From assembly GCA_030264375.1 (NCBI GenBank), contig JASCQW010000072.1, positions 28,730,789-28,794,788 of the forward strand: DNA of 64,000 nt, given 5' to 3'. The notes beneath the pieces were generated by a model. That model was not told where the DNA came from. It searched no databases and saw nothing but the letters and a program-made list of their open reading frames with translations. Both the position numbers and the translations under genes were made by a program. The stretch's first letter is position 1; the number at the start of each line of letters is the position of its first letter. Origin of the DNA: Carcharhinus longimanus (taxonomy: Eukaryota). Of this stretch, positions 382-61,379 are shown one piece after another.

Positions 382-590
382 GTATCTATTGTAGACATTT
401 ACAATGAAGCTATTCAAGATCTTCTGTCAAAACAGTCAAACACTCAGTTGGAGATAAGAACCCAGGGAAAGACTGTTGTCATCCCTGGATTAACAGAAAT
501 TGAAGTGAAAACTGAAGATGACATTAAGAGAGCGATGCAGCTTGCAAACCAAAACAGGACAGTTGCATTGACAAAGATGAACTCTGAGAG
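382..590 (+). CDS. Kinesin-14 (KIFC3-like) motor domain, internal exon A; the gene starts upstream of the window
   Basis: cag|GTA acceptor and AG|gtacaa donor; translates VSIVDIYNEAIQDLL...PGLTEIEV...NRTVALTKMNSE, matching kinesin EIYNE/DLL and NR...T.MN motifs. Confidence 0.92.
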
Positions 591-857
591 GTACAATGTA
601 ATAAAAATAAACCATCCCACTAGTTAATGTAGTCAACTCTGTAATTTGAAATACAATTCTGTATCCACCGAATACCGCTTAATAAGGGGAGATGGTAAGT
701 GTTCACAAATGATTTTTCTTGTTCTTATTATATTCTTAGTGATAGAATCAATTTATTCATACAAGGAGGTTAGACAACGGAATTGCCTACTCTAATTTCA
801 TTTTTTCATTCTCTCTTCTCATATACTAATCTAATCTAAATTGGATTTAAAGGATGC

Positions 858-1158
858 TATAGAATCATACAGTGCAGAAAGAGGCCATTCAGCCAATCAA
901 GTCTGCACCAACCACAATCCCACCCAGACCCTATCCCCACAACCCCATGCATTTACCCTAGCTTGTCCTCCTGACACCAAGGAGCAATTTAGCATGTCCA
1001 ATCCATCTAACCCACACATCTTTGGATTGTGGGAGGAACTCGGAGCATCCAGAGGAAATCCACACAGACACATGGAGAACGTGCAAATTCCACACAGACA
1101 GTGACCCAAGTGGTGCTGTGAGGCAGCAATGCTAACCATTGTACCACTGTGTCATCCC
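858..1158 (-). mobile_element. HE1-type tRNA-derived V-SINE
   Basis: Reverse complement has the tRNA-like head (agtggtacaatggttagcattgctgcctcacagc), central tgtgtggaatttgcacgttctcc domain and CR1-like tail. Confidence 0.85.
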
Positions 1159-1549
1159 TATGATCTCTCTCTGTGGTCAATTGTTGTAAAAGTTGCTGCC
1201 CCTGTCTAAGTACAATCAATGTACCTTCTCCTATTTATTAGTAAGAACCCTTGATTGCTGCCCCGATCTTGTTAACGGCTTGCCAATTTGCAGAAGAAGA
1301 CTTTACCTTCTCAAAACCTTCCATAATCTTAAACTCCTTTGAGTTCCCTTTTAACCATCTCCGTTCCAATGGAAAAAAATCCTAATTTGGATCCATTCCT
1401 CAGAACTAGATTTCATCCTGATATCCTATTGAATATTTCCTTTGCAGAAAATGGCAGTTTTGGGTTTGCGATAAAACTGTCACCTCAAGCTTTCAGCCTT
1501 AAATCATTCATTTATGATATTGATAGTTGGATGTGATTTGTCCTGTTTT

Positions 1550-1832
1550 CAGCACAGTGGTTAACATTATGCCTCATTGTGCCAGAGACCCAGGTTCAAT
1601 CCCTGACTTAGGTCATGGTTTGTGTGAAGTTTCGACGTTGTCCCTGTGTCAGTGTGGCTTTTCTCCAGGTGCTCTGGTTTCTGAAAGATGTGCTGATTCA
1701 GTGCATTAGCCATGCTATATTCTCCCTCAGTGTACCAGAACAGGCACTGGAGTGTGGCAACTCGGGGATTTTCACAGTAAATTCATTGCAGTATTAATGT
1801 AAGCCTACTTGTGACACTAATAAAATCAACTT
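1550..1832 (+). mobile_element. V-SINE with alternative 3' tail
   Basis: Same head and core as HE1 but tail ggggattttcacagtaa...aagcctacttgtgacactaataaa. Confidence 0.75.
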
Positions 1833-2084
1833 TAAATTCTTCAATGCAGTCTTTTTTGGCAAACAGTAGCAAGATGAAGCAACTGTGTCAGGCTAGCTAT
1901 GCCACTCAATATACTTTGCTGGCTTATAAACAATATGTTCTATTGCATTTGATGACAGCTTTCCTCTTCTGTAAACTCACAACAAAGAAAACTGAATTGA
2001 ATTTGGAATTGGAAATTTGTGATGTTGGTTATTGTACATTTTATAGAGTACCATAATATAATAATTCTGCCTTTTAAACACATA

Positions 2085-2700
2085 GGACAGAATTTTCCTG
2101 GGATTGCACAAAAATAATAGGGAGCCTCATAAGGATGGCTCTTTGGTATTGTCCTGCTACCAGGAAGTTTCCTAGGGCAGTCTGCAAAACAAATCGGCTG
2201 CCTGCACCAGAGGCTGGCAGTCAGTTGTGATCATTAAAGCCTCAATTAAGATGATTATCCCAGCTTGCCAGCAGTGGAGCATCCAACCTCCCACCATGTG
2301 CCGAAGCCACCAGCTTAATGGGGACAACCTCCGAGGAGGTCACCTGAGCCAGATATCCCAGAAAGAAAGGGGCCGGCGAAGGAAAGACTGGCCTGTGTCC
2401 CCATCAAGTCATATGGAGGAGTTTTCCCACCAATCATACCTGCTGGCTTTCCTCATATTATATTTCATTTCACCCCCTACTGACTCTTACCTGCCTCAGC
2501 AGTGCCCAATGGGACCGCTGATTTCTAGAGGTGTCCACCCTCTAATTGGTCTAACAGTATCTCAATCCCAGAAGGATTGCTGTGCTGGTCTCGCTGCCAG
2601 CAAGTGCGGACTTGGAACTTCACTTTGTCCCAACAAGGGGGTTTCAAAGCCTGCTGTAACATTCCACCTATTACTGAGAAGTATCTGCTACCTGTTAGTA
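2085..2700. mobile_element. Decayed non-autonomous DNA-transposon-like repeat
   Basis: GC-richer block beginning ggacagaattttcc; resembles blocks at 4600-4945, 15850-16300 and 45415-45990. Confidence 0.35.
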
Positions 2701-3356
2701 CACTTTGTGCACCATGAGATGAGGAGTTTTAGTTATTGGAAATGGAGTATAGACTTAATATGACCATCCAGCGTCAGTATAAAACTTTAATGTCGGACAA
2801 GGTGCAGTTACATAATCTCCTGCTATTCTGTCATAATACAACCTCTGAAGAGTAATCTTTAAAAATTGGGCAATAAATCTTGGACGAGTCAAGACTGCCC
2901 ACACCCCGTGAAGGAAGATTTTTTAAAAAATGAACGAAAAATACATTCGGGGGCTGTCATTGTGCTTTTGCTCACTGAAAACAAAGTTGAAACTTTCCAA
3001 AGTCATTTCATGAAAGAGTTTTGCAGTCAATTGACAAAGGAGATTTTAATTTTATTAAGTGGAATGGATTAAAAACAGGACCAAAGTGCTAACCCTGTGT
3101 ACTCAGCTCTCAACCTTGCTCACCTGAGGGCAGACAATTTAAATGGATTGAAAACTATCTCAATGAGAACACATTTCTCTTAATAAAAGGAAATTATCTC
3201 AGCGGGGGTGGGAGGGGGATGGGGGGATGAACGTAAGAAAACACAGAATGAGGAAAATGTGCTCTTTACAGAGAACATTTTACAACCCGCCATATAAAAT
3301 TTATTGAATGATTTCCTTAACCACAGGTAATCATGTGAAACTCCAACATTTTTTGC

Positions 3357-3675
3357 CATCATAGAATCATAAAATCTACAGTGCAGAAAGAGATCATTTG
3401 CCCCATGGAGCCTGCACCGACAACCAATCCACCCAGATCCTATCCCCGTAATATATTTACTCTCCTGGTCCCTCTGACACTCAGGGGCAATTTATCATGG
3501 CCAAACAACCTAACCTGCACATCTTTGGACTGTGGGAGGAAATTGGAGAACCCGAAGAAAACCCCATGCAGACACAGGGAGAATGTGCAAACTCCACACA
3601 GCCAGTGATCCGAGGACAGAATCAAATTCAGGTCCCTGGCGCTGTGAGGCAGCCACTGTGCCACCGTGTCACCAT
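3357..3675 (-). mobile_element. HE1-type V-SINE
   Basis: Full head, core and CR1-like tail on the minus strand. Confidence 0.85.
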
Positions 3676-3977
3676 TCTTCCAGTCAACATCTTCACTATT
3701 AAATCATAACCATATCATGCAGATGGCATGTGCATGATCTGTGAATGAGCTGAATTACTTTATGCCATTTATTCTGCAGGACTAATTCAAGTTTGATCCT
3801 CTTCAAGCTCTTAAATTCTTTTGATCTACCTGCATAAATTTCCTTTATTGTTGTCACGTGAGAAATAGTTACATAGTTACGCATAACTTCAGGAAAGGAC
3901 ATTCAGCCATTAAGCATTTTTACAAACCAGGTTGTTACAAAACTCTAATATCCATGTCCTTTCTCTTTGACCTCCAG

Positions 3978-4164
3978 TTCATGTTCTCATCTGCTGCTAA
4001 TACTACATGTAACAGGAGTGGATGATGTCTCTGGGGCCACATACCGTGGCACACTCACACTATGTGATTTGGCAGGATCAGAGTGTATCTCCAAAACAGA
4101 AGCTACTGGACAGAGACTTGTAGAAGCAGCGGCCATTAACAAGTCCCTGACTGCGCTTGGACAA
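3978..4164 (+). CDS. Kinesin-14 exon B (switch I end, switch II, alpha4)
   Basis: ctccag|T acceptor and CAA|gtaaat donor; phase 2 joins exon A; SSCSHLLLILHVTG...LTLCDLAGSECISKTEATGQRLVEAAAINKSLTALGQ. Confidence 0.93.
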
Positions 4165-5274
4165 GTAAATGTATTTTGTATTTGCAAGCATACTGTTGTA
4201 AGCTACCAACAACTTATTGAAATGTTGCTTGCCTGTTTTTATGATTTGGGGTTGCTGATCTAATTAAATATTTAGAAACAAATTTGACTCGTTGAAATTT
4301 TGGAATGTAAATTGGAAATTCATTCATATCAGGCAGAGTAGTTGCAATAAAAGATACAAGATTCTTCAGAAGTAGAAAAGCATGGGGCTGAGTCTTTAAC
4401 CAGTGGTTGGGAACCAGACATTGCGGGATCATTATGGATTCCAACTCCATGTATTGTACATTACATCCACCGTTATTTTCAAAGCTCCAGCCAATGAAAG
4501 GCTATAGAGTGAGCTTGCCATCCCCAACACTTAGAGATTGGCAGCTCCATTGGATGAGGTGGGAGATACAGATGTGAAGCAGCAGACAGCCAGGTAAAGT
4601 TAATTCAATTTTTCTAAATGCCACTGTTGCTTGGCAGTGATCCTGGAAGGACATTCTTGGAGCATTGTGCCCCCAGTTCCTTTCTGCCTGAGCCCACCGT
4701 ATTGGCCTGAATTGGGAACGGCCTGTGTTGCATGAGGACAAAATCTTAAAAGACCATTAAATCTAATTTGCTTCAATTGAGTACCCGCTGTTTGCTGGCG
4801 GACAGCCAATCGGCACTGAGTGTCTTCTCTCAAAATGGCTTGGCATTGGATTCACGGTGGGAACCAGCACAAAGACCAGAGGCACAAACTTGCGTGCCCG
4901 CCCACCACTGATCCAGACCTCGATCTTCCTAAAAATTCAGCTCATAATTACTGATAATTAATAGAATGTAGTTAATGTGTGTTGCCATCTTTACAAATTT
5001 AATTATTTTCCCTCTTTGACGAAGATGGCAAATTCACCTCATTTTCTATAGTCTAAAATAAGGCATAACGCACTGAAAAAAACCTTCTGTAATACACCAC
5101 CTCCTGTCAATGTGGTTATGTTTAATCATGGCTGCTCAATTAAATTTGCTTCATCTCTTGTTCCTGATGGCTTGAAGATGAACAAACAAATATTGTAATG
5201 CAATATTAGTTCTTATATTTCCTTTCCTCCATGTAAAGTGAGGTAGTTAAGATAACAAAATAAATCAAAATGAC

Positions 5275-5340
5275 AGCGCGCAAGAAACAATACTTTTCAC
5301 TGTTTGCTAATGCATGCGACAATAATAAATCAAATCAAAT
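5275..5340 (+). mobile_element. Short LINE 3' tail
   Basis: caagaaacaatacttttcactgt...gacaataataaatcaaatcaaa, shared with 31480-31540. Confidence 0.65.
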
Positions 5341-5581
5341 ATCCATTCTCTTTTTGGCAAAACTGGATTTACTGTAGGATTGATTACTTGCACACTGAGG
5401 CCTTTACACCAGTTTTATCTATCTATATATGCAACTTCCCTTTACCTGTATCTTTCTCGAAAGTAGCGTCAGACCTATTCAACAATAAAATCTACCCATT
5501 TTTACATTTTGTCGTAAAAAGAGAAATGTCATGTCAACATGTTTTGCAACTGATTTGATTCTGTTCCTCCAAATTTTGTAG

Positions 5582-5677
5582 GTTTTTATAGCCTTGAAGA
5601 GTAATGCACTTCATGTGCCATATAGAAACTCCAAGCTCACACATCTACTTCAACCAGCTCTTAGCAGAGATGCCAAG
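5582..5677 (+). CDS. Kinesin-14 exon C (microtubule-binding HVPYR motif)
   Basis: tttgtag|GTT acceptor and AAG|gtaatg donor; 96 nt, phase 0; VFIALKSNALHVPYRNSKLTHLLQPALSRDAK; absent from the ORF track. Confidence 0.93.
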
Positions 5678-6339
5678 GTAATGTGTAATTGAGACTTATC
5701 TTTTGTTTATTGAATAATGACTAATTAATATACATTTGTTTCTTTGAATAATGTTAAAAATACATTATGAAATAATTAAGGAATAAATTATTTAATCCAA
5801 CTGCTCGCATGCCCCTCCATTTCATTTCCAGGCAAGCTTCAGTAATAAATGATGAATTTGCTACACTTGTGACTGATTATATTTTAAACCTCAGAAAGAT
5901 CAAGGTGGGAGGTTGGGCAAGAGATGAAGCTGCAATCTGGTTAGTCTGACCACAAATTAAATAGTGGCCTTTGTCATTTTGTAGATAATGGGTGATCAAA
6001 TCTTGACATTACCAGTTTCAACATCAATTAATGGAATTTCTGGAATGGCAAATTGGGAGTAATGCACCTTCATTGCATGCAATCACTTTTAACTCAGGTT
6101 GTATGGGAAATGGCAAATCATTGATACAAAATAAAGCTGCTGTAAAATGTCTCTTATTACTGGGCATGAGTAAAAAGCTGAAGTGATGTTTAGTAAGTCT
6201 GTGGGGTGACAATAAATGGCCAATTCCCTGCATGGTAACAGTGGATATGTCATGTACTTGATATATACCAGTTAGACTATCTGAATCCCTTTAATCTGAG
6301 TTCCACTATGTCACAACAATATGACTGCCCAAGGCAAGT

Positions 6340-6582
6340 ACAAGGCAAGTTTTTTTACACAATGGCGGGTGCCTGGAATTTGCTGCTGGGGGAAGTAGTG
6401 GAAGCAGATATAAAAGTGACTTTTAACAGGCGTCTTGACAAATGCATGAATAGGATGGGAATAGGGCGATATGGTCCCCAAAAGGGTAAGGGATTTTAGT
6501 TCAGATGGGCAGCATGTTCAGTGCAGGCTTAGAGCACCGAAGGGCCTGTTCCTGTGCTGTAATTTTCTTTGTTCTTTGTTCA
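6340..6582 (+). mobile_element. CR1 LINE 3' end
   Basis: FF.....AWN.L..EVVEA....TF...LD C-terminal motif, then gaagggcctgttcctgtgctgt and (ttctttg)n tail. Confidence 0.8.
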
Positions 6583-7291
6583 AAACATAGTTAGTAGGCA
6601 TTGTGGACATAATGTTCTGTATCTCCTTGAGCATGATCGCTTACAATATTCTAATTTATTTTGCATTCCAATGTAGCCAACAATATTTTTTCTAGTTTTC
6701 TCCCACTTCCAGTGCACATGAATTCAACTTTTTTTTCTCTCATTCTCACCTACTCCCTCTCTCCTTCTCTCACTCCCACTTTTACTCCACCCCCTCAGTG
6801 ATCTCAATAGTTAAGTGGTTAGTTTCCATATATTTGTTGGCAAAATCCAGATCTACCTCTTCCCCGACTGTTGATTTATAAAGGTAATTTTTGTGTGTGT
6901 TACTAGATTGTCTGTATGATATCATTGGTTAGACCAAAACCATTTCATTTACCATCACCAAAAGCTTCATCCCCTGTCCCCAGCTGTTCGTTTAGGTTTA
7001 GACATCCAAGCTGAATTTTCCTGCTGTTGAATGTCAGGAAGTGCGGTGATCTTATTCAATTCCTATCAAAAACAGACCCACAGCTGAACTGAATTTCGAA
7101 CCCCATATCCTCGCTTTCCTCAATACTTCATTCTACCTCTGCAATTTTGCAGTTTGCACTCTACCGTTGGACTTGTTCAATGTCAATTTTACTTCTAGAC
7201 TTGACTCCTTCAATGCTTTCTTCATTGGTCTTCCAAAATGCACAAATGCCAGCTTATCTAAAACCCTACTGCTGACATCCTCAAGACACTA

Positions 7292-7506
7292 GGGGCGGGA
7301 TTTTCCAGACCTCACCCCCTCCTCTCATGGTAGGGGCAGCTCATCATTGGCCTCTCCACGTGGGTTCTTCTGGTCCTGCTGATGTCTGTGGAGCTTTGCG
7401 TGTCTTGCCTGTCCCACTGCTGGGGAACCTGCCAGGAGGAAGCAGGGGGGCTGCCTTCCGCAGGACCAGAATATCCCACCAGCAGGCAGGATTGGAAAAT
7501 CTATTC
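7292..7506. mobile_element. MITE with imperfect terminal inverted repeats, inserted in an L2-like fragment
   Basis: gggcgggattttcc at the left end and ggaaaatctattc at the right; related element near 54215-54410. Confidence 0.5.
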
Positions 7507-7609
7507 AACCTTATTCATCCATCACCCCTGCATTCACTAACTCTTGTCTCTCAAAGCATCAAATTCAGAATTCTCCACCCATTTTATAAATTCTTCTACA
7601 GCATGAAAG

Positions 7610-7833
7610 ACTTGACTAACTGTAAAGACTCGCCTTCTAAATCAGTATTCTGTAAACCATGTGCGTGCCTTTATATGCACTGTTTGTGGTCAGAACTCCC
7701 ACTCACCTGATGAAGGGGCAAACCCGAAAGCTAGTGGCGTTTACTACCAAATAAACCTGTTGGACTTTAACCTGGTGTTGTGAGACTTCTTACTGTGTTT
7801 AACCCAGTCCAACGCCAGCATCACCACATCATC
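7610..7833 (+). mobile_element. Penelope-like element pseudo-LTR remnant
   Basis: Hammerhead core followed by aataaacctgttggactttaacctggtgttgtgagacttcttactgtg; the same sequence recurs twice at 25022-25167. Confidence 0.7.
7703..7737 (+). ncRNA. Minimal type I hammerhead ribozyme motif
   Basis: TCAC-CTGATGA-A-GGG-GCAAA-CCC-GAAA-GCT-A-GTGG; stem I TCAC/GTGG, stem II GGG/CCC, palindromic AGCT stem III. Confidence 0.7.
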
Positions 7834-7949
7834 ATCTTCACCGCCAGTGGTGGCAGAACCTTCAGCAATCTCACTCTTGCTCTCTAAAATTTCTTCCCTT
7901 AATTCTCCTCCTTTCTATAGTTCTTCCCAATTTTAAAATACTTTCCTTT

Positions 7950-8910
7950 TCATTTGTGTTTGGATGCGTGCATTGTTGTTATGATTAGCATTGCCTCTCC
8001 CAAATTACCCTCGAAAAGGTGGCGGTGACCACCACCTTGTGATAATGTTGTAAAATTATTTCCACAGTGCAGTTAGGAAGGGTGTTCCAGGACCTTAATC
8101 TAATTACAATGAAGCAACATATATATAATTCCAACTAAGTATGGTGAGAGACTTGGAGGGAGCTTGGAGTTGGTGGTTTTCCATATGCCTATTACTCTTG
8201 TTGTCCTGAATGGACAAGATCAAGGGTTTAGATGGGATTACCAGAGCAGCTTTGACCAGTTGCTGCAGTGCAGTGAATCTTACACAGTGAAGGGAATTAA
8301 TGTGTAAAGTGGTGGATTCCAATCAAATGTATCGTTTATGCTGGATGATGTTGAATTTCTTGAGTATTATTGGAACTGCACTCATCCAGACATATGCCAG
8401 AGAATATTCCATCATTTGTGCCTTGGAGATGGTGGACTGATTTTGTGGAGAATTAGAAGCCAAATTGCTTGCCCCTGAATTCTCAACCTTTGACATGCTC
8501 TTGTAACTGCAATATTCATGTGGCTAATCCAGCTAAATTTCTGGTCAATGTTAATTTCCAGGATATTGATGGCAGGGGTTTCAGTGATGGTGCTGCTGTT
8601 GGATGTAGCCTGGCACTTGTATGGTATGAATTTTACTTGTCACTTATAAGCCCAAGCCTAAATGTTGTCCAACACTTGCTGTGAGAGGGCATGGACAACT
8701 CCACATTTGAGGAGCTATGAGTGGAATGGAACATCACAATCATTACTGAGTATACCCTCTCCTGCCCTTATATTGGCAGGCAGGTCATTGATGAAGCAAC
8801 TGAAGATGATTTGGCCTAGCATACTATCCTGAGGAACACCAGCAGCAAATGTCCTGGAGCTGAGATGAACAATCACAACCATCTCTCTTCATGTTAGGTT
8901 TGATGCCAAC
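7950..8910 (-). mobile_element. Old CR1-clade LINE 3' fragment
   Basis: Diverged reverse complement of the family at 18135-18668 and 40240-40810. Confidence 0.6.
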
Positions 8911-8994
8911 CATTCTTTTTAAAAATTATCTTTCCAACATGCTTTTGATCACCTCTTCTACTATTGCTGAGTGAGCATTTTCTCCTACATGAAT

Positions 8995-9256
8995 ATCCTT
9001 GTGATAGTCAGCATGGATTTGTCAAGGGCAGGTCGTGCCTTACAAGCCTAGTTGAATTCTTCGATAATGTGACTGAACACNNNNNNNNNNNNNNNNNNNN
9101 NNNNNNNNNNNNNNNNNNNNNNNNNNNNNNNNNNNNNNNNNNNNNNNNNNNNNNNNNNNNNNNNNNNNNNNNNNNNNNNNTGGTAGGTGTTGACGTGATC
9201 GGCGCAACTCGTGGGCCGAAGGGCCTGTTTGTGCTGTAGTGTTCTATGTTCTATGT
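8995..9256 (+). mobile_element. Young CR1 LINE collapsed around an N-gap
   Basis: SQHGFVKGRSCLTSLVEFF reverse-transcriptase motif before the gap and a CR1 3' tail after it. Confidence 0.85.
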
Positions 9257-9379
9257 TTTCAATGTTAAAGGAATCTGCCATAGCCTGCAGCCATAACTGT
9301 GACTCAGAAAAGTAAGGTCAGCATTACCAGTGGCTGTGAAGGGGACTGTGGCCATGACCATTTATGCTTCTATTTCCTT

Positions 9380-10760
9380 ACAAGCTAGAACTGGGGGTAT
9401 TTACCACATCTCAGTTTGCCATCTTCTGTTGCATACAGGAAACCTCAATGGAAACTGGTTACATTTTATTGTCTCTTGCTGAAGAACAGCAGGCTGGGAG
9501 AGAATATATCTTCACAAAGGTTGCAGGCTTTTCCATGATACTGAGTACAATTGACTGCATGCACATTGCCTTGTGGGTGCCGCATATCAACTCTGAGTTC
9601 TACCACACTGAAAGTGTTTCCACTTTCTTAGTTTGTGTGCAATCATAGGAACAAATTATGCAGCAAAATATCCTGGCAACATTCAGGACACCTTCATTCT
9701 GCAGATGTGAGCTGTGCCGGCTGCATTTTAAGCCACCATGACAAATCAAAGGGTGGTTATTGGATAACAACAGCTATTCACTGACAACATGACTTCAGTG
9801 TGCTATCCATGCACATGTCAACAGTGTCCATTCATAGATGGCTCCAGGTAGTCTGAACTTTGGAGAATGAGGCAGATAATTGGGGTCTGAAAATGGACAG
9901 TGGCCCACAATGCACAATTTCCCAGTATCTACTCAATGTGAGGAGAGCAGTATGCCAACTTCAACCTGCTTGCTCATTCTCATGTTTGTATCCTGCAGCT
10001 AGTGTTAATCGCACTAGTGGTGGTTGCATGAGGATAGTACATTGAAGCTAGCTGGCACCTCTTAAAGGGAAGGTACATTGTAACTGGAGCAGGCAGAAGT
10101 CCTTGTTCAAACCACTTTGACTTGGAAGAGGATAAGATGGTAGCACAACCTAGGAGAGAGCATGTTCTAAGGAATTTGAACCCTGCACTGGAGAAGTGCT
10201 GTTTCTAAAAACGGTAGGAGGCCCAGATAGACATACTGTCAGAGATCAGATTAACATGGCAATCCATGGTAGAAATCAACACCCAAAGACTTGAATGCAT
10301 TGTGGGAAAATTTCAATAACNNNNNNNNNNNNNNNNNNNNNNNNNNNNNNNNNNNNNNNNNNNNNNNNNNNNNNNNNNNNNNNNNNNNNNNNNNNNNNNN
10401 NNNNNNNNNNNNNNNNNNNNAACCTTACACAAATGATCAAGGTCAGAGAATGTCATAGCCCATCAACTGCACTGCTAGACTCACACACTGCTCAATATAT
10501 CACACCCCTCTCACTCATTGACCAAATGTTTCCATGAGGAATCTTACTTAACATTCAAGTTAATGTATTAATGTACCTCACTCTCTCACACTTAGCACTG
10601 TGGCAGGTACCCACATTTCACAGGTTGCACACACTGTCAGCTATTGAACCAGATTACACCAAACAGATTGCATAACACTCACTAACATTTCCCTCTCCCT
10701 TGCAGCTCAAGGCCACGTACAATCTCAAACAAGTAGCAGCCAATCAGAAGGATTTAGGCG
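9380..10760 (+). mobile_element. Decayed PIF/Harbinger DNA transposon: transposase plus probable Myb/SANT-like second gene
   Basis: AGF...IDCMHIAL (about 9520-9575), YPGNIQDTFIL (9669-9701) and GWLLDNNSYSL (9751-9783) match HARBI1-type motifs; FNNLTQMIK across the 10321 gap. Confidence 0.7.
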
Positions 10761-11048
10761 TGTCTGATTTGCAGCAGTGACAGCATTTTTGTTATCAATC
10801 ATTTCTTGGAATTAACTGTTTATAAAAGATATTTCATTTAAAATCGGTACAGCATCAAATCATTTGGACAGAAATGTTATAGCAACATTTAGATTTGTAG
10901 GAACTTGGCACTTTAATCCAGGTGAACAGGTTTTCAAATCTCATGCCAGAATCAAGCAAAACACTCCTTGTGTAAAGTTACATTTTCTTTGACTATTTGT
11001 AGGCTTAAAGATGCAATGTGACTGAAGTTTTCTATTTTTACATTTCAG

Positions 11049-11174
11049 GCTTGTATTTTTATGAATATTAGTCCAGAAAGCAGGAAACTGGATGAAACAT
11101 TAAGTACACTTCAGCTTGGTGCCTTAATTGGGCAAACGAGTCTTGGAAAAAAACATACAGCACTTAACTGCTAA
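11049..11174 (+). CDS. Kinesin-14 terminal coding exon D
   Basis: tttcag|GCT acceptor; ACIFMNISPESRKLDETLSTLQLGALIGQTSLGKKHTALNC then TAA at 11172-11174; a motor ending at the C-terminus is the kinesin-14 architecture. Confidence 0.88.
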   Translation, partial: ACIFMNISPESRKLDETLSTLQLGALIGQTSLGKKHTALNC

Positions 11175-11285: not shown

Positions 11286-11291
11286 AATAAA
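11286..11291 (+). promoter_or_regulatory. Candidate polyadenylation signal of the kinesin gene
   Basis: AATAAA about 110 nt after the stop codon. Confidence 0.5.
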
Positions 11292-34154: not shown

Positions 34155-35910
34155 CTAGAATAATTAAACATTAGTTTTTCCAGATGTGAGGAGAAATCTG
34201 AAGTGTTCTTGTTTATTTGATTAACCAGACCATCCCTTTAGAATCTTACTGATATATTGAGGTGGTTGCACAGTTTTAAGCCATAAAACTGCATTAAAGC
34301 ACAAGTATCCCAACTCTTTCGCTTCAAATTTGTAAGTTTTCTGTTGTATATACTTTCTTCAGATTATTTTACACAATAAATGGAAATATACTTCACAGTA
34401 CAGCAAATTATTTTGACATGAGCAGTCAGCTCAGTTTTAGGTAACCAACATGAGCTCCTTAGGTTACTGTCCTTGGCCCAACCTCCTTCAGCTGCTTCAG
34501 TGACCTTCCTACCACCGTGAAGTCAGAAGTGAGAATGTTTACTAATGATTGCACAATGTTCAGCATGAAAAATGATCTTTATGATTGTATTGAATAGCAC
34601 AGCAAGCTCGATGGGCTGAATAGCTTAGTCTTGTTCCTATTAAGGCTATTCTGGAAGTAAAACAGGGCAGTCCAGTGTAAGTGAAGGGATTATCAATCTG
34701 ACTTGAATTGTTATTTCTTCATATCTCTTTATATTGTAATAATGTTGGTTTATAGCCATTATACATAGGATATTATGATTCAAAAATTACAATATGTTAA
34801 AATGATGACCATTGAACTTTTGAATGGCAACTAACCCTCATAGCACTGGCAGGTTTTAATGTTAAGTAGCCACATGCCTAATGATAAAACGTTTGGAGGC
34901 ACACTGTTGCAAGCTTATTTTTGGATTTCACAGCAGGTTCAACATTATAGGTGCAAGGTTATCAGCTAATTTTGCAAAAGGAAAACATTTGGCTAAAACA
35001 TTATCCTTTTTAATTAGAGTTTAGAATCATTCTGGTGCTCAATGATACAGAATCAAATACAAGACTTATAATTAGTAGTTTCACTTTGTGAAACAGCAAT
35101 TATTGTGATGAGAGAAGTTTGTGATAACAAAACAGGGCATTATAGAGAGCTTGTTAACCGATGGAAAGATAGGTATTTGGAAAAGCTGAATGGTAATGAA
35201 GTGAATCCAACTAGGTCCACTCATGTAATGTAATGTGGAATTGTCAGATAATAGTTGTAAGAGAATGCAAGTATCATATTGCATTGTGGAACAGGATTCA
35301 AAGTGGTCATCAGCCTTAATGTTGCAGCCAGAATGGTAAGGTGTTTTAGTTGCCAACCATCAGATATGGTTGTAAATCCTATATTTTAAGAGTATGCTTA
35401 AGCATTATTCCATCTACTTGATAAATCTATGACTATCTGACATAAACTTTTCAAAAACTTTATTGGTTTTGAGGGACAGAACATCTAATCATTAATAAAA
35501 AAGCATCCTTGAAAACACATACTATCAGTCTGAGGGACAGCCAGCAAAACATTAATCATGAACATCTGATGAAGCAGTTCTCAATAACACCATGGGCTTA
35601 CTAAGCAATTTAACTTAAATCAGTTTTAAATATCCCATGACTGCTCTTTTACAACCAACCTAGTCAGAGTAATACTGAATAAAATTATTTCCTTGAGTTC
35701 AGTCAACATTCCAAATCTAGTTGTGTCAAAATGACTTTTGCTGATAACAGCTGTGGAGATGTTTGAGTTATTCTATTATGTTAATTGAGATATTAACCCA
35801 TTTAAAATATATTGAATTTCTTAAACGTGTGCACCGATCTCACCGACAGTAAATTTTTACCTTCATATTGTTTTAAAAAATTGGTCTCTAAAATTACACA
35901 AAAATCTTAC

Positions 35911-36043
35911 CAAATAGTTGATGGTATAAAATTTGTCATATTCATGATTTCTGGCATTGATTCTGCGATGCTGTTTTTTCCTCATGTGATCTTTGAGGGT
36001 ATTCTTGTCACGGAATGTTTTCTCGCAATATAAACATTGCAAA
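35911..36043 (-). CDS. ZNF277: ZNF277 exon 7 (C2H2 finger)
   Basis: ctgcag|T acceptor and TTG|gtaaga donor; 133 nt; LQCLYCEKTFRDKNTLKDHMRKKQHRRINARNHEYDKFYTINYL. Confidence 0.97.
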
Positions 36044-36849
36044 CTGCAGGAAAAAAGGCATTTGCCGATAACACATTTTGCAAATTCAAAACTCTTACTT
36101 AAATACTCATTGAGCAAATAGCTGTAATCAACCATGAAATCATGTGAAAGATCAAAAACCTTAAATTCTTCTTGCAGGTAATTAGCAATTATTTCTCTGT
36201 AGCGGTGTAATTGAATTGAGGCCAAGATAAAAATAACTATAGACAAAGTAGACATCACTCTTTAATGCTTCATTGATATTGATTCAATATCACAGTCAAG
36301 TGCTATCTGAAAGTCTCATAGGAACAACAGCTAAGTAATTCAACAGAATACATAAATTCATCAGCAAAGAATCAGCATCAACATGAGGAGAATAAATTCC
36401 AACAAGTTTTGATCTAGGATGTATTGCATGAATGAATAATGAAAACAGAGTGAATTGTAAAGGGACTTGGATAAATGCTCAAAAGGAAAAAAAATTGCAG
36501 GGTTGTGAGGAAATATTGCTCTTTCAAAGAATTGATATGATGGGCTGAATAACCTCCTTCTGTGCTGTAGCATTCTGTCATCTCATTTACATTTAATTCC
36601 TGGGGAGACATGTTTCTGAATCCGTTGGGAAGAAATAAGGGAGGGCTGGTGGCAGTGTTAGGTTTGTCTGGACCCTTGGACAATTTGTCTGAATACTAAT
36701 TTGGTAATGCAAGTAAGTAGTAAGAAGTATTGGGCAATTTCAAAAGCTACTAGGGAATTAACATGGTAGCACTATAATGCAATATATTTTCAGTTTATTT
36801 TTCTCAAGATACTCTAGAGCAATAAGCTACTTGTCACCAATCACATCCT

Positions 36850-60030: not shown

Positions 60031-60693
60031 ACCTCGCTTGTAGTTTATTTAGCAAATTATGTAAATATCATTTCCTGTCAACTGAAAATTACCCTGGGCT
60101 AAAAACTAGGTTGCACAGAAGAGAAAAAAATAGCAATGGTCTACATCATTGCTGCTGCACCCACTCCCATTCAACTGTAATTTATGACTAATGCGCCTAC
60201 ATGTACTGTTGCAGTGTTTCTCCAATGTGGTCAAGGGATTTCAAAAAATTTTACACATTTATAAGTCTTTGCGCATATCACATGGGAAGATTAAAAATAT
60301 ATATAGGCTATTCCCATACAAGCTTCTTACGTCAGGAGCAAAGACTTGTACTGGGATAGAAGCATTACATGGGGACATTTAAATGAACTTTGGTTGCCTT
60401 TACTTCTTCAGGCTCAATTGCTTACCGTAATTAACACAGTTACAGCAGCCTTACAACAGGCCTTGGGTGACTTACATTAAGATTAATGCCTGAATACGAG
60501 AGGAGCATTATAAATTGTCAGCTCACTTTTTTTGTACATTTTAGAAACAAGTGAGCTCTACAACTTTGTAATTTGCAATATATTTGAAGTGAAACTTATA
60601 ATCTCCACTCCTATTCAATACATAATAATATAGATTTAATCAGTATCGTCTTAAAACAGAGTGAGCCCATTAATAAAATGTAAATGATCAAAC

Positions 60694-60895
60694 CTTCTAA
60701 AATCTACAATGAGCTTCACATCAGCTATCACCAGTTTGTGTTCAACAATCATATGCCCAAGTAGCTTTTCCTGCTCTTCTGCAGGATAGCAATCTTCACA
60801 AAATATGCAAGGCAACACCAGTGATGTAAATCCATCAGTAATGCAACATGAAGGTTCTGGCAAGGAGAGGGGCTCCAATATCGAGTCTTTTTTCC
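60694..60895 (-). CDS. ZNF277: ZNF277 exon 2
   Basis: ttcag|GG acceptor and AG|gtttga donor; 202 nt; KKDSILEPLSLPE...PCIFCEDCYPAEEQEKLLGHMIVEHKLVIADVKLIVDFR. Confidence 0.95.
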
Positions 60896-61379
60896 CTGAA
60901 AATAACACAAATTCACTGTAATAATTACATGAATACCAATTTCAATCTGCACTATTCAATCATTTCATTTATTTATAATTCTATCTACTGGAAGAAAGAA
61001 AAATTGAAACATTTTGGATCATATGGGATCAGTACCACCAACACAACTGTGAAATGCACGAGTGCAGCAAGGGCTAGGGTGGGTGTTGACTCCTGCTCCA
61101 AATAACAAGAGGTGCCTGAAGTCAACACCACCTTACAAGTTTTAAAACATCTCTGTTCATAGGACACGTCATGGACTGCGTTCTGAAAATGACAAGTTAG
61201 ATTTTTTCTTTATGTTGATGAAGGAGGAACATTTTGCACACTAAGAGTAAATTTGTTTCATTAACATGAGGCATATGGTTTATTATTTTTTCCAAAGTTA
61301 CAGTAAGCAACTGCTTCATAATATGGGAATGTTCAGTGAACAATTTATGTTTTTGAAAAGTTAGAACTCCTCCACAACT

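Follow-up and report, generated by a model that had tools for sequence, protein, structure and literature searches.

Introduction

Kinesins that do not walk are already established in nature, e.g., KIF26A and KIF7/Costal2, in which the motor fold serves as a scaffold (PMC13510395, PMC12919046). In this study, we analyzed a stretch of 64,000 nucleotides from the shark Carcharhinus longimanus (contig JASCQW010000072.1, positions 28,730,789 to 28,794,788 of the forward strand; hereafter “the window”), which holds the C-terminal motor half of a kinesin-14 gene with cysteine (Cys) in place of the switch I arginine (Arg). Vik1 and Cik1 represent further natural non-motile kinesins, and, to our knowledge, such proteins are known only as finished products. 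With a probability that we place a little above even, the gene in the window is still functional and encodes a predicted non-walking microtubule adaptor, selection on its motor having been relaxed in sharks and the switch I Arg lost. In KIF26A and KIF7/Costal2, whole families are affected, whereas the loss described here is restricted to certain lineages, has occurred recently and more than once, and is seen next to canonical orthologues.

For the residue itself, KIF1A offers a direct comparison, as its R216 is the same Arg and pairs with the switch II Glu (PMC12109325). In this report, R216C abolishes motility with a microtubule dwell of 0.97 s vs. 6.4 s for the wild type, R216H retains 4% of the speed, heterodimers of R216C with a normal head move, and mutants of R254, the Arg following the Glu, keep their motility (PMC12109325). 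R216C and R216H are also the two substitutions found in sharks. In Kar3 and kinesin-1, exchange of the switch I Arg for Ala decoupled microtubule binding from nucleotide release (PMC2064809), and the Ala of yeast Kar3 R598A (PDB 1f9v) aligns to the Cys of the window. In contrast to these engineered or disease mutants, the shark Cys is fixed in natural populations and sits in a kinesin-14 of another subfamily, for which we infer the effect from them.

An open frame with two altered switches

The coding features of the gene in the window are the following:

382 to 590, + strand: first coding exon of the piece, from beta4 (DIYNE) into switch I, of which it holds the first half; donor GT at 591; Pfam Kinesin E 2e-16
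394 to 396, + strand: GAC, Glu>Asp codon of EIYNE, also in Mustelus
3978 to 4164, + strand: second coding exon, with the remainder of switch I, beta6-beta7, switch II, loop 11 (L11) and alpha4; Pfam E 4e-14
3982 to 3984, + strand: TGT, switch I Arg>Cys codon (CGT in run X20)
4084 to 4086, + strand: TGT, Cys after the Glu of switch II; old, common to Mustelus, Scyliorhinus and Cetorhinus
5582 to 5677, + strand: third coding exon, with the intact loop 12 (L12)/alpha5 microtubule-binding motif and the Gly>Arg codon AGA at 5666 to 5668
11049 to 11174, + strand: last coding exon, with beta8, alpha6, the Phe>Leu codon CTT at 11115 to 11117 and the stop TAA at 11172 to 11174

Re-reading of these exons bore out the gene structure given in the original prediction: acceptor AG and donor GT are present at every splice site, the intron phases (2, 0, 0) are compatible, and the joined exons (618 nucleotides) encode 205 residues without internal stop. 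Stops, frameshifts and lost splice sites as marks of a pseudogene were absent from the four exons. The motifs it had listed are likewise all encoded, namely NSESSCSH in switch I (its Ser codon being split by intron 1), DLAGSEC in switch II, DIYNE, LSRDAK, ETLSTLQL with its terminal Leu and the intact HVPYRNSKLTHLLQ. Accordingly, the kinesin signature NxxSSRSH lacks its Arg in this gene; in switch II the Glu of DLAGSE is retained and the following Arg alone is replaced by Cys. At 5663 to 5668, the window reads AGC AGA, and the Gly>Arg change could be CpG decay over the codon boundary (AGC GGA).

All four exons match Pfam Kinesin (PF00225) in order over profile positions 128 to 322, exon 4 only at E 0.009. 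The stop codon lies 20 codons past alpha6, i.e., the motor forms the C-terminal end of the protein, and the P-loop exon is located upstream of the window start. Two assembly gaps of 100 N each (9081 to 9180 and 10321 to 10420) fall into intron 3, and the flanking exons join without missing residues.

Reality and age of the changed codons

Contigs of four of the 23 listed runs (X1, X6, X13 and X20, from organisms A, B, D and G) were compared with the window over positions 3720 to 5800, covering 40 of the 146 difference rows, which do not extend to the private changes of X6 and X13; depths were 7.8 for X1, 2 for X6 and 3.9 for X13. The TGT codons proved to be real: the contigs of X1, which is possibly the assembly's own source, show no difference from 3720 to 4568 and confirm both, and X6 and X13, which stem from other studies, read only T at 3982. 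Differences from the window amount to 19 of 1583 bases in X6, 27 of 1145 in X13 and 84 of 1582 in X20, the latter reading CGT at 3982. Since T stands in X1, X6 and X13 and C in X20, the switch I change is a CGT>TGT change common to several organisms, as expected from the CpG transition proposed originally; its carriers, organisms A, B and D, lie 1.2–2.4% apart. For the epaulette shark, a mutation rate of 7e-10 per base per generation was reported (PMC10587355). Even at the upper bound of this rate, taken from another species, the 1.1% by which the window's branch has changed since D would correspond to several million generations.

Comparison with X20 also points to constraint on exon 2: one replacement and two silent changes were found, where 7.3 replacements are expected from the intron divergence of 5.8% (P 0.006; applying the local rate, P 0.03; both on the assumption that no X20 row is missing up to 4460). 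The single replacement is the switch I codon itself. None of the ten indels among the runs falls into an exon, and exons 2 and 3 are indel-free in the three other runs.

The remaining changes are older. Gly>Arg is present in all nine full elasmobranch models of the alignment, the switch II Cys in Mustelus, two Scyliorhinus and Cetorhinus, and DIYNE in Mustelus; Phe>Leu occurs in all five other shark models reaching the site (Mustelus, two Scyliorhinus, Cetorhinus and Pristiophorus), and a Heptranchias fragment keeps Phe. Judged from this alignment, the switch I Cys is the sole catalytic change private to the window's clade and the only young one, and the switch II Cys seems to have arisen inside sharks from Arg. 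By the terms of the original prediction, conservation across species speaks against decay; the sharing of the switch II Cys, Gly>Arg, Phe>Leu and DIYNE across sharks contradicts plain decay at these sites.

Among the 120 best exon 2 matches listed, 118 have the switch I Arg (the others being one His and one fragment beginning after the motif). The switch II Arg is found in 115, and none of the exceptions lies outside the elasmobranchs. Further changes hit the switch motifs in Pristiophorus (His at both Arg), Hemitrygon (Gln) and S. torazame (a two-residue insertion in switch I). We count these for the adaptor reading as probable independent hits on the same motifs.

Several side observations concern the same residues. 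In S. torazame (P0162), the two extra residues at the exon junction would be consistent with an upstream shift of the acceptor by six bases. The gene of Heptranchias perlo is annotated as two proteins (P0129, P0015) split at the intron inside switch I, which is a possible lesion or an annotation error. Mustelus has Arg>Cys in the RVFCR motif too, and in almost every elasmobranch model, as in gar and sturgeon, Cys replaces an Arg of the neck (P0005 residues 471 and 479; P0194, P0278). Because gar and sturgeon also have long branches, relaxation may reach beyond elasmobranchs.

An unnamed kinesin-14 lineage

The kinesin-14 assignment was confirmed, and the gene appears to represent an unnamed lineage of this family that reaches from choanoflagellates to amphibians and is neither KIF25 nor KIFC2/3. 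The closest among the matches listed is a Mustelus asterias protein of 794 residues (XP_078077234.1; 195 of 205 residues identical, 98% in exon 2), in which the P-loop GQTGSGKT is intact and a coiled coil and an ELxGNIRV neck precede the C-terminal motor, the latter being 95% identical to the window's part. In motor trees, the gene falls into one clade with ray, coelacanth, amphibian, ray-finned fish, lamprey, mollusc, annelid, sponge and choanoflagellate proteins; it shares this clade with the orthologues from Mustelus and Xenopus and differs from them by the switch I Cys. Database labels of the orthologues are automatic and read ‘KIFC3-like’, ‘klp-3’ or ‘KIN-14E/R/S’ (e.g., Xenopus tropicalis XENTR_v10008640).

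KIFC2 and KIFC3 (kinesin-14B) resemble the gene in carrying a C-terminal motor after a coiled coil, and human KIFC3 (5wde) is the best solved structural match of exon 2 (E 2.5e-11). They differ, however, in having another N-terminus and canonical switches, and turtle KIFC2 lies outside the clade (Shimodaira–Hasegawa-like approximate likelihood ratio test 99). KIF25, with which the gene had been compared originally, is a kinesin-14 as well, but apparently not the same family: the kif25 sampled, a truncated gastropod fragment, stands outside the clade on a long branch. Of KIFC2/3 and KIF25, the trees sampled turtle KIFC2 and this fragment. Human KIF25 carries DLAGSEC, and no paper with that string was found; in the window's gene, the Cys of DLAGSEC is derived within sharks from Arg.

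Full orthologues share a Met-Gly start, Ser/Thr at position 6, two beta-meander units, a three-helix bundle, the coiled coil and the C-terminal motor. By its consensus, we liken the Met-Gly start to a putative myristoylation signal. For the three-helix bundle of the frog orthologue model, most top structural matches were UBA/CUE domains (Z 5–5.9, root-mean-square deviation of about 2 over 45–50 residues), which is below the tool's trust level; Pfam CUE in the Mytilus orthologue likewise remained under the cut-off (E 0.009). A Foldseek search with the N-terminal model, beta-meander units included, gave no match at E 0.001. In the ESM Atlas, the N-terminal region had no usable match, and the Prochilodus protein matched nothing but generic kinesin clusters.

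Among the best 120 matches listed, no amniote orthologue was present. A search for short N-terminal fragments added no shark protein within the best 120 of 1297 matches, where missing species may be unannotated or lower-ranked. Published work on this family or its decay in sharks was not found in searches of the open literature.

Selection on the motor half in sharks

Tree lengths were calculated for 31 proteins on a fixed topology, with three carcharhiniform sharks, four batoids, 12 amphibians and 8 teleosts and with 100 bootstraps. The ratio of the motor to residues 191–281 was 4.8 (1.5–27) in the carcharhiniform sharks and 2.7 (1.2–7.5) in batoids, vs. 0.91 (maximum 1.39) in amphibians and 0.82 (maximum 1.19) in teleosts; the ratio of motor to coiled coil was 0.91, 0.67, 0.24 and 0.52, respectively. 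Within the motor half, loop 9 (L9) plus switch I and switch II together took 13 of 98 parsimony changes in six sharks, whereas the share in 20 bony vertebrates was 9 of 324 (Fisher P 2e-4). Measured against the remaining motor half, the shark switch loops thus evolve at about five times the pace of those in bony vertebrates. For L12/alpha5 the shares are 7 of 98 and 24 of 324 (P 1). Mild support comes from the columns conserved in teleosts and amphibians, of which 12–18 of 157 are departed from in elasmobranchs, 8 in the coelacanth and 21–25 in molluscs.

The gene models of Mustelus and two Scyliorhinus are intact, with 793–802 residues. Between Mustelus and S. canicula, 168 aligned residues differ, and about 17 stops or frameshifts would be expected under neutrality (P ~3e-8). 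Because both models are full length despite this divergence, the older changes are not plain decay. These comparisons suggest that the motor is under relaxed selection in sharks. In this respect, the original prediction was right about relaxation, as far as the motor is concerned, and not about its being recent, as most changes are common to other sharks with intact models and do not form one burst.

A second lineage in otophysan fishes

The 150 best representatives of the family profile, comprising the family and other kinesins, were scored at switch I. The Arg is present in 146, two lack the region, and the remaining two read SSCSH, both in this family: partial models from Electrophorus voltai (P0356) and Prochilodus magdalenae (P0283). 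They form sister rows inside the teleosts (support 100/99) and share ten changes at sites fixed in seven other non-shark rows, including SSCSH, a P-loop Thr>Ser (GQSGSGK) and an eroded L9. Judged by this placement, their switch I Cys probably arose independently of the shark Cys. As side observations, both also have EIYVES and an alpha4 Gly>Arg as in S. torazame and Pristiophorus.

The two proteins differ at 84 of 252 motor residues, Prochilodus retains L12/alpha5 (19–21 of 23) and the N-terminal module, and an open frame over this divergence without selection has a P of ~2e-4. The switch-I-Cys form appears to be long-lasting in otophysan fishes. The open frames would lend support to this, but not proof, since prediction programs steer around stops and the junctions in both models are odd.

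Genomic surroundings

Two motifs behind the stop codon are candidates for polyadenylation:

11224, + strand: ATTAAA, second candidate polyadenylation motif
11286 to 11291, + strand: AATAAA, candidate polyadenylation signal 112 bases past the stop

A short interspersed repeat occurs three times in intron 1, once in inverted orientation (868 to 1110, 1684 to 1733 and 3377 to 3614; the copies are 70–84% alike), and a short element at 5273 to 5343 has a very high copy number in all four runs compared. A C2H2 zinc-finger gene with exons at 35866 to 36261 and 60654 to 60941 (both – strand; Pfam zf-C2H2_2) lies tail to tail with the kinesin and is presumably ZNF277. This neighbor provides a synteny anchor for locating the kinesin or its remains in other vertebrates. 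Ten further long frames of the window gave no Pfam family above cut-off.

Discussion

The preferred reading, a functional non-walking adaptor, builds on an open frame, real codons, their order of age, the faster switch loops, the conserved L12/alpha5 and the N-terminal module conserved in relatives. Mechanistically, loss of the salt bridge between the switch I Arg and the switch II Glu would leave ATP (adenosine triphosphate) bound but poorly hydrolyzed, with the P-loop taken as present from Mustelus. Impaired hydrolysis in the window motor, as already proposed originally, is probable in light of KIF1A R216C (PMC12109325). The switch II Arg, in contrast, is not essential, given the motile R254 mutants of the same report. 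By this comparison across families, the motor was probably weakened by the old Cys in switch II and probably brought to a stop by the young one in switch I. The head would then bind microtubules briefly or diffusively, and the protein would be kept for its N-terminal part, i.e., the myristoylation-like Met-Gly start, the two beta-meander units, the UBA/CUE-like bundle and the coiled coil, which would provide a loose connection from membranes or ubiquitinated cargo to microtubules. In the switches, methylated CpG codons would be the first to decay, because selection no longer maintains them. Since L12/alpha5 and the N-terminal module are held, such a loose, non-walking link is the likeliest function.

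Several observations weigh against this reading. Relaxation in sharks extends to alpha4, another microtubule contact (7 of 98 vs. 7 of 324 parsimony changes), the L12 motif of Hemitrygon has Arg>Lys, and the first beta unit (113–160) is no better kept in elasmobranchs (76% vs. 83% and 79%). The limits of the regions were drawn by eye after the alignment had been seen, and the two otophysan models are partial and stand outside the bony vertebrate set. On the window's branch since D, no exonic change accompanies 14 intronic ones, where the probability of no replacement is 0.13 and not significant, and the evidence on the window species covers four exons. Finally, the motor changes below the neutral rate (10 residue changes vs. 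about 24 expected, assuming that Mustelus is as distant as organism G), which could also reflect residual motor function.

As an alternative, the gene could be dying: long leaning towards dispensability in elasmobranchs, it would have ceased to matter at or before the switch I change, with too little time since then to lose its frame. We regard this as unlikely, albeit as a serious option. Four exons stay open by chance with P 0.2–0.5, and sharks mutate slowly (PMC10587355). The Heptranchias model is split at the switch I junction and those of Cetorhinus and Pristiophorus come without N-terminal parts, i.e., they look broken; moreover, chimaera, carpet shark and white shark are, like amniotes, missing among the best 120 matches listed, and many conserved Arg and Gly were changed to CpG-decay products. 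However, close relatives keep the full gene with a strongly conserved N-terminal module, and the switch-I-Cys form appears to have persisted in otophysan fishes. An intact whole gene of 2.4 kb would cost P 0.001–0.06, which is a computed expectation, as the window shows four exons; the unchanged exons since D and the indel-free exons point the same way, neither being significant.

A slow but active minus-end motor, in which the Cys is tolerated or compensated and cargo still moved, is quite improbable. The P-loop and the switch II Glu are intact in the closest full model, that of Mustelus, the motor half evolves below the neutral rate, and pairing with another kinesin-14 could rescue motility as in the KIF1A heterodimers (PMC12109325). 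No partner is known, however, the R216C homodimers are immobile, the Arg>Ala exchanges in Kar3 and kinesin-1 decouple microtubule binding from nucleotide release (PMC2064809), and apart from the two models without the region, Arg is replaced among the 150 representatives only by the Cys of this same family.

The static microtubule cross-linker that had been offered originally is very improbable. The intact L12/alpha5 and a coiled coil implying a dimer with two heads would suit it, but it is unsupported, because no second microtubule-binding site was found, the N-terminus having a UBA/CUE-like bundle instead of such a tail, and the R216C analogue dwells for about 1 s (PMC12109325). An assembly or base-calling error at the TGT codons, conceivable in a gapped draft with ten N runs, has a negligible probability and is excluded as far as the contigs allow, with X1 identical, T at 3982 also in X6 and X13, and the switch II Cys in four annotated sharks.

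Beyond the single gene, an ancient kinesin-14 whose start resembles a membrane anchor and whose module resembles a ubiquitin-binding one may have turned repeatedly from motor to non-motile adaptor, via Arg>Cys in a shark clade and in otophysans and Arg>His in the sawshark; we put this forward tentatively, at somewhat less than even chances. If true, nature would offer a series of emerging pseudo-motors, for which the canonical orthologues serve as controls, and the alleles converting the motor would be those behind human KIF1A disease. What is new, on the sequences compared, is that an unstudied family has lost one and the same residue more than once, within limited lineages, and still has canonical orthologues. 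The finding further flags a kinesin-14 family, from choanoflagellates to amphibians, that is mislabeled as KIFC3 or klp-3 in databases. One orthologue group offers canonical, half-changed (Mustelus, switch II Cys only) and doubly changed forms, the latter two being 95% identical in the motor half. With these graded shark forms and the independent fish series, the transition of a motor into a scaffold, or the loss of its gene, becomes directly testable.

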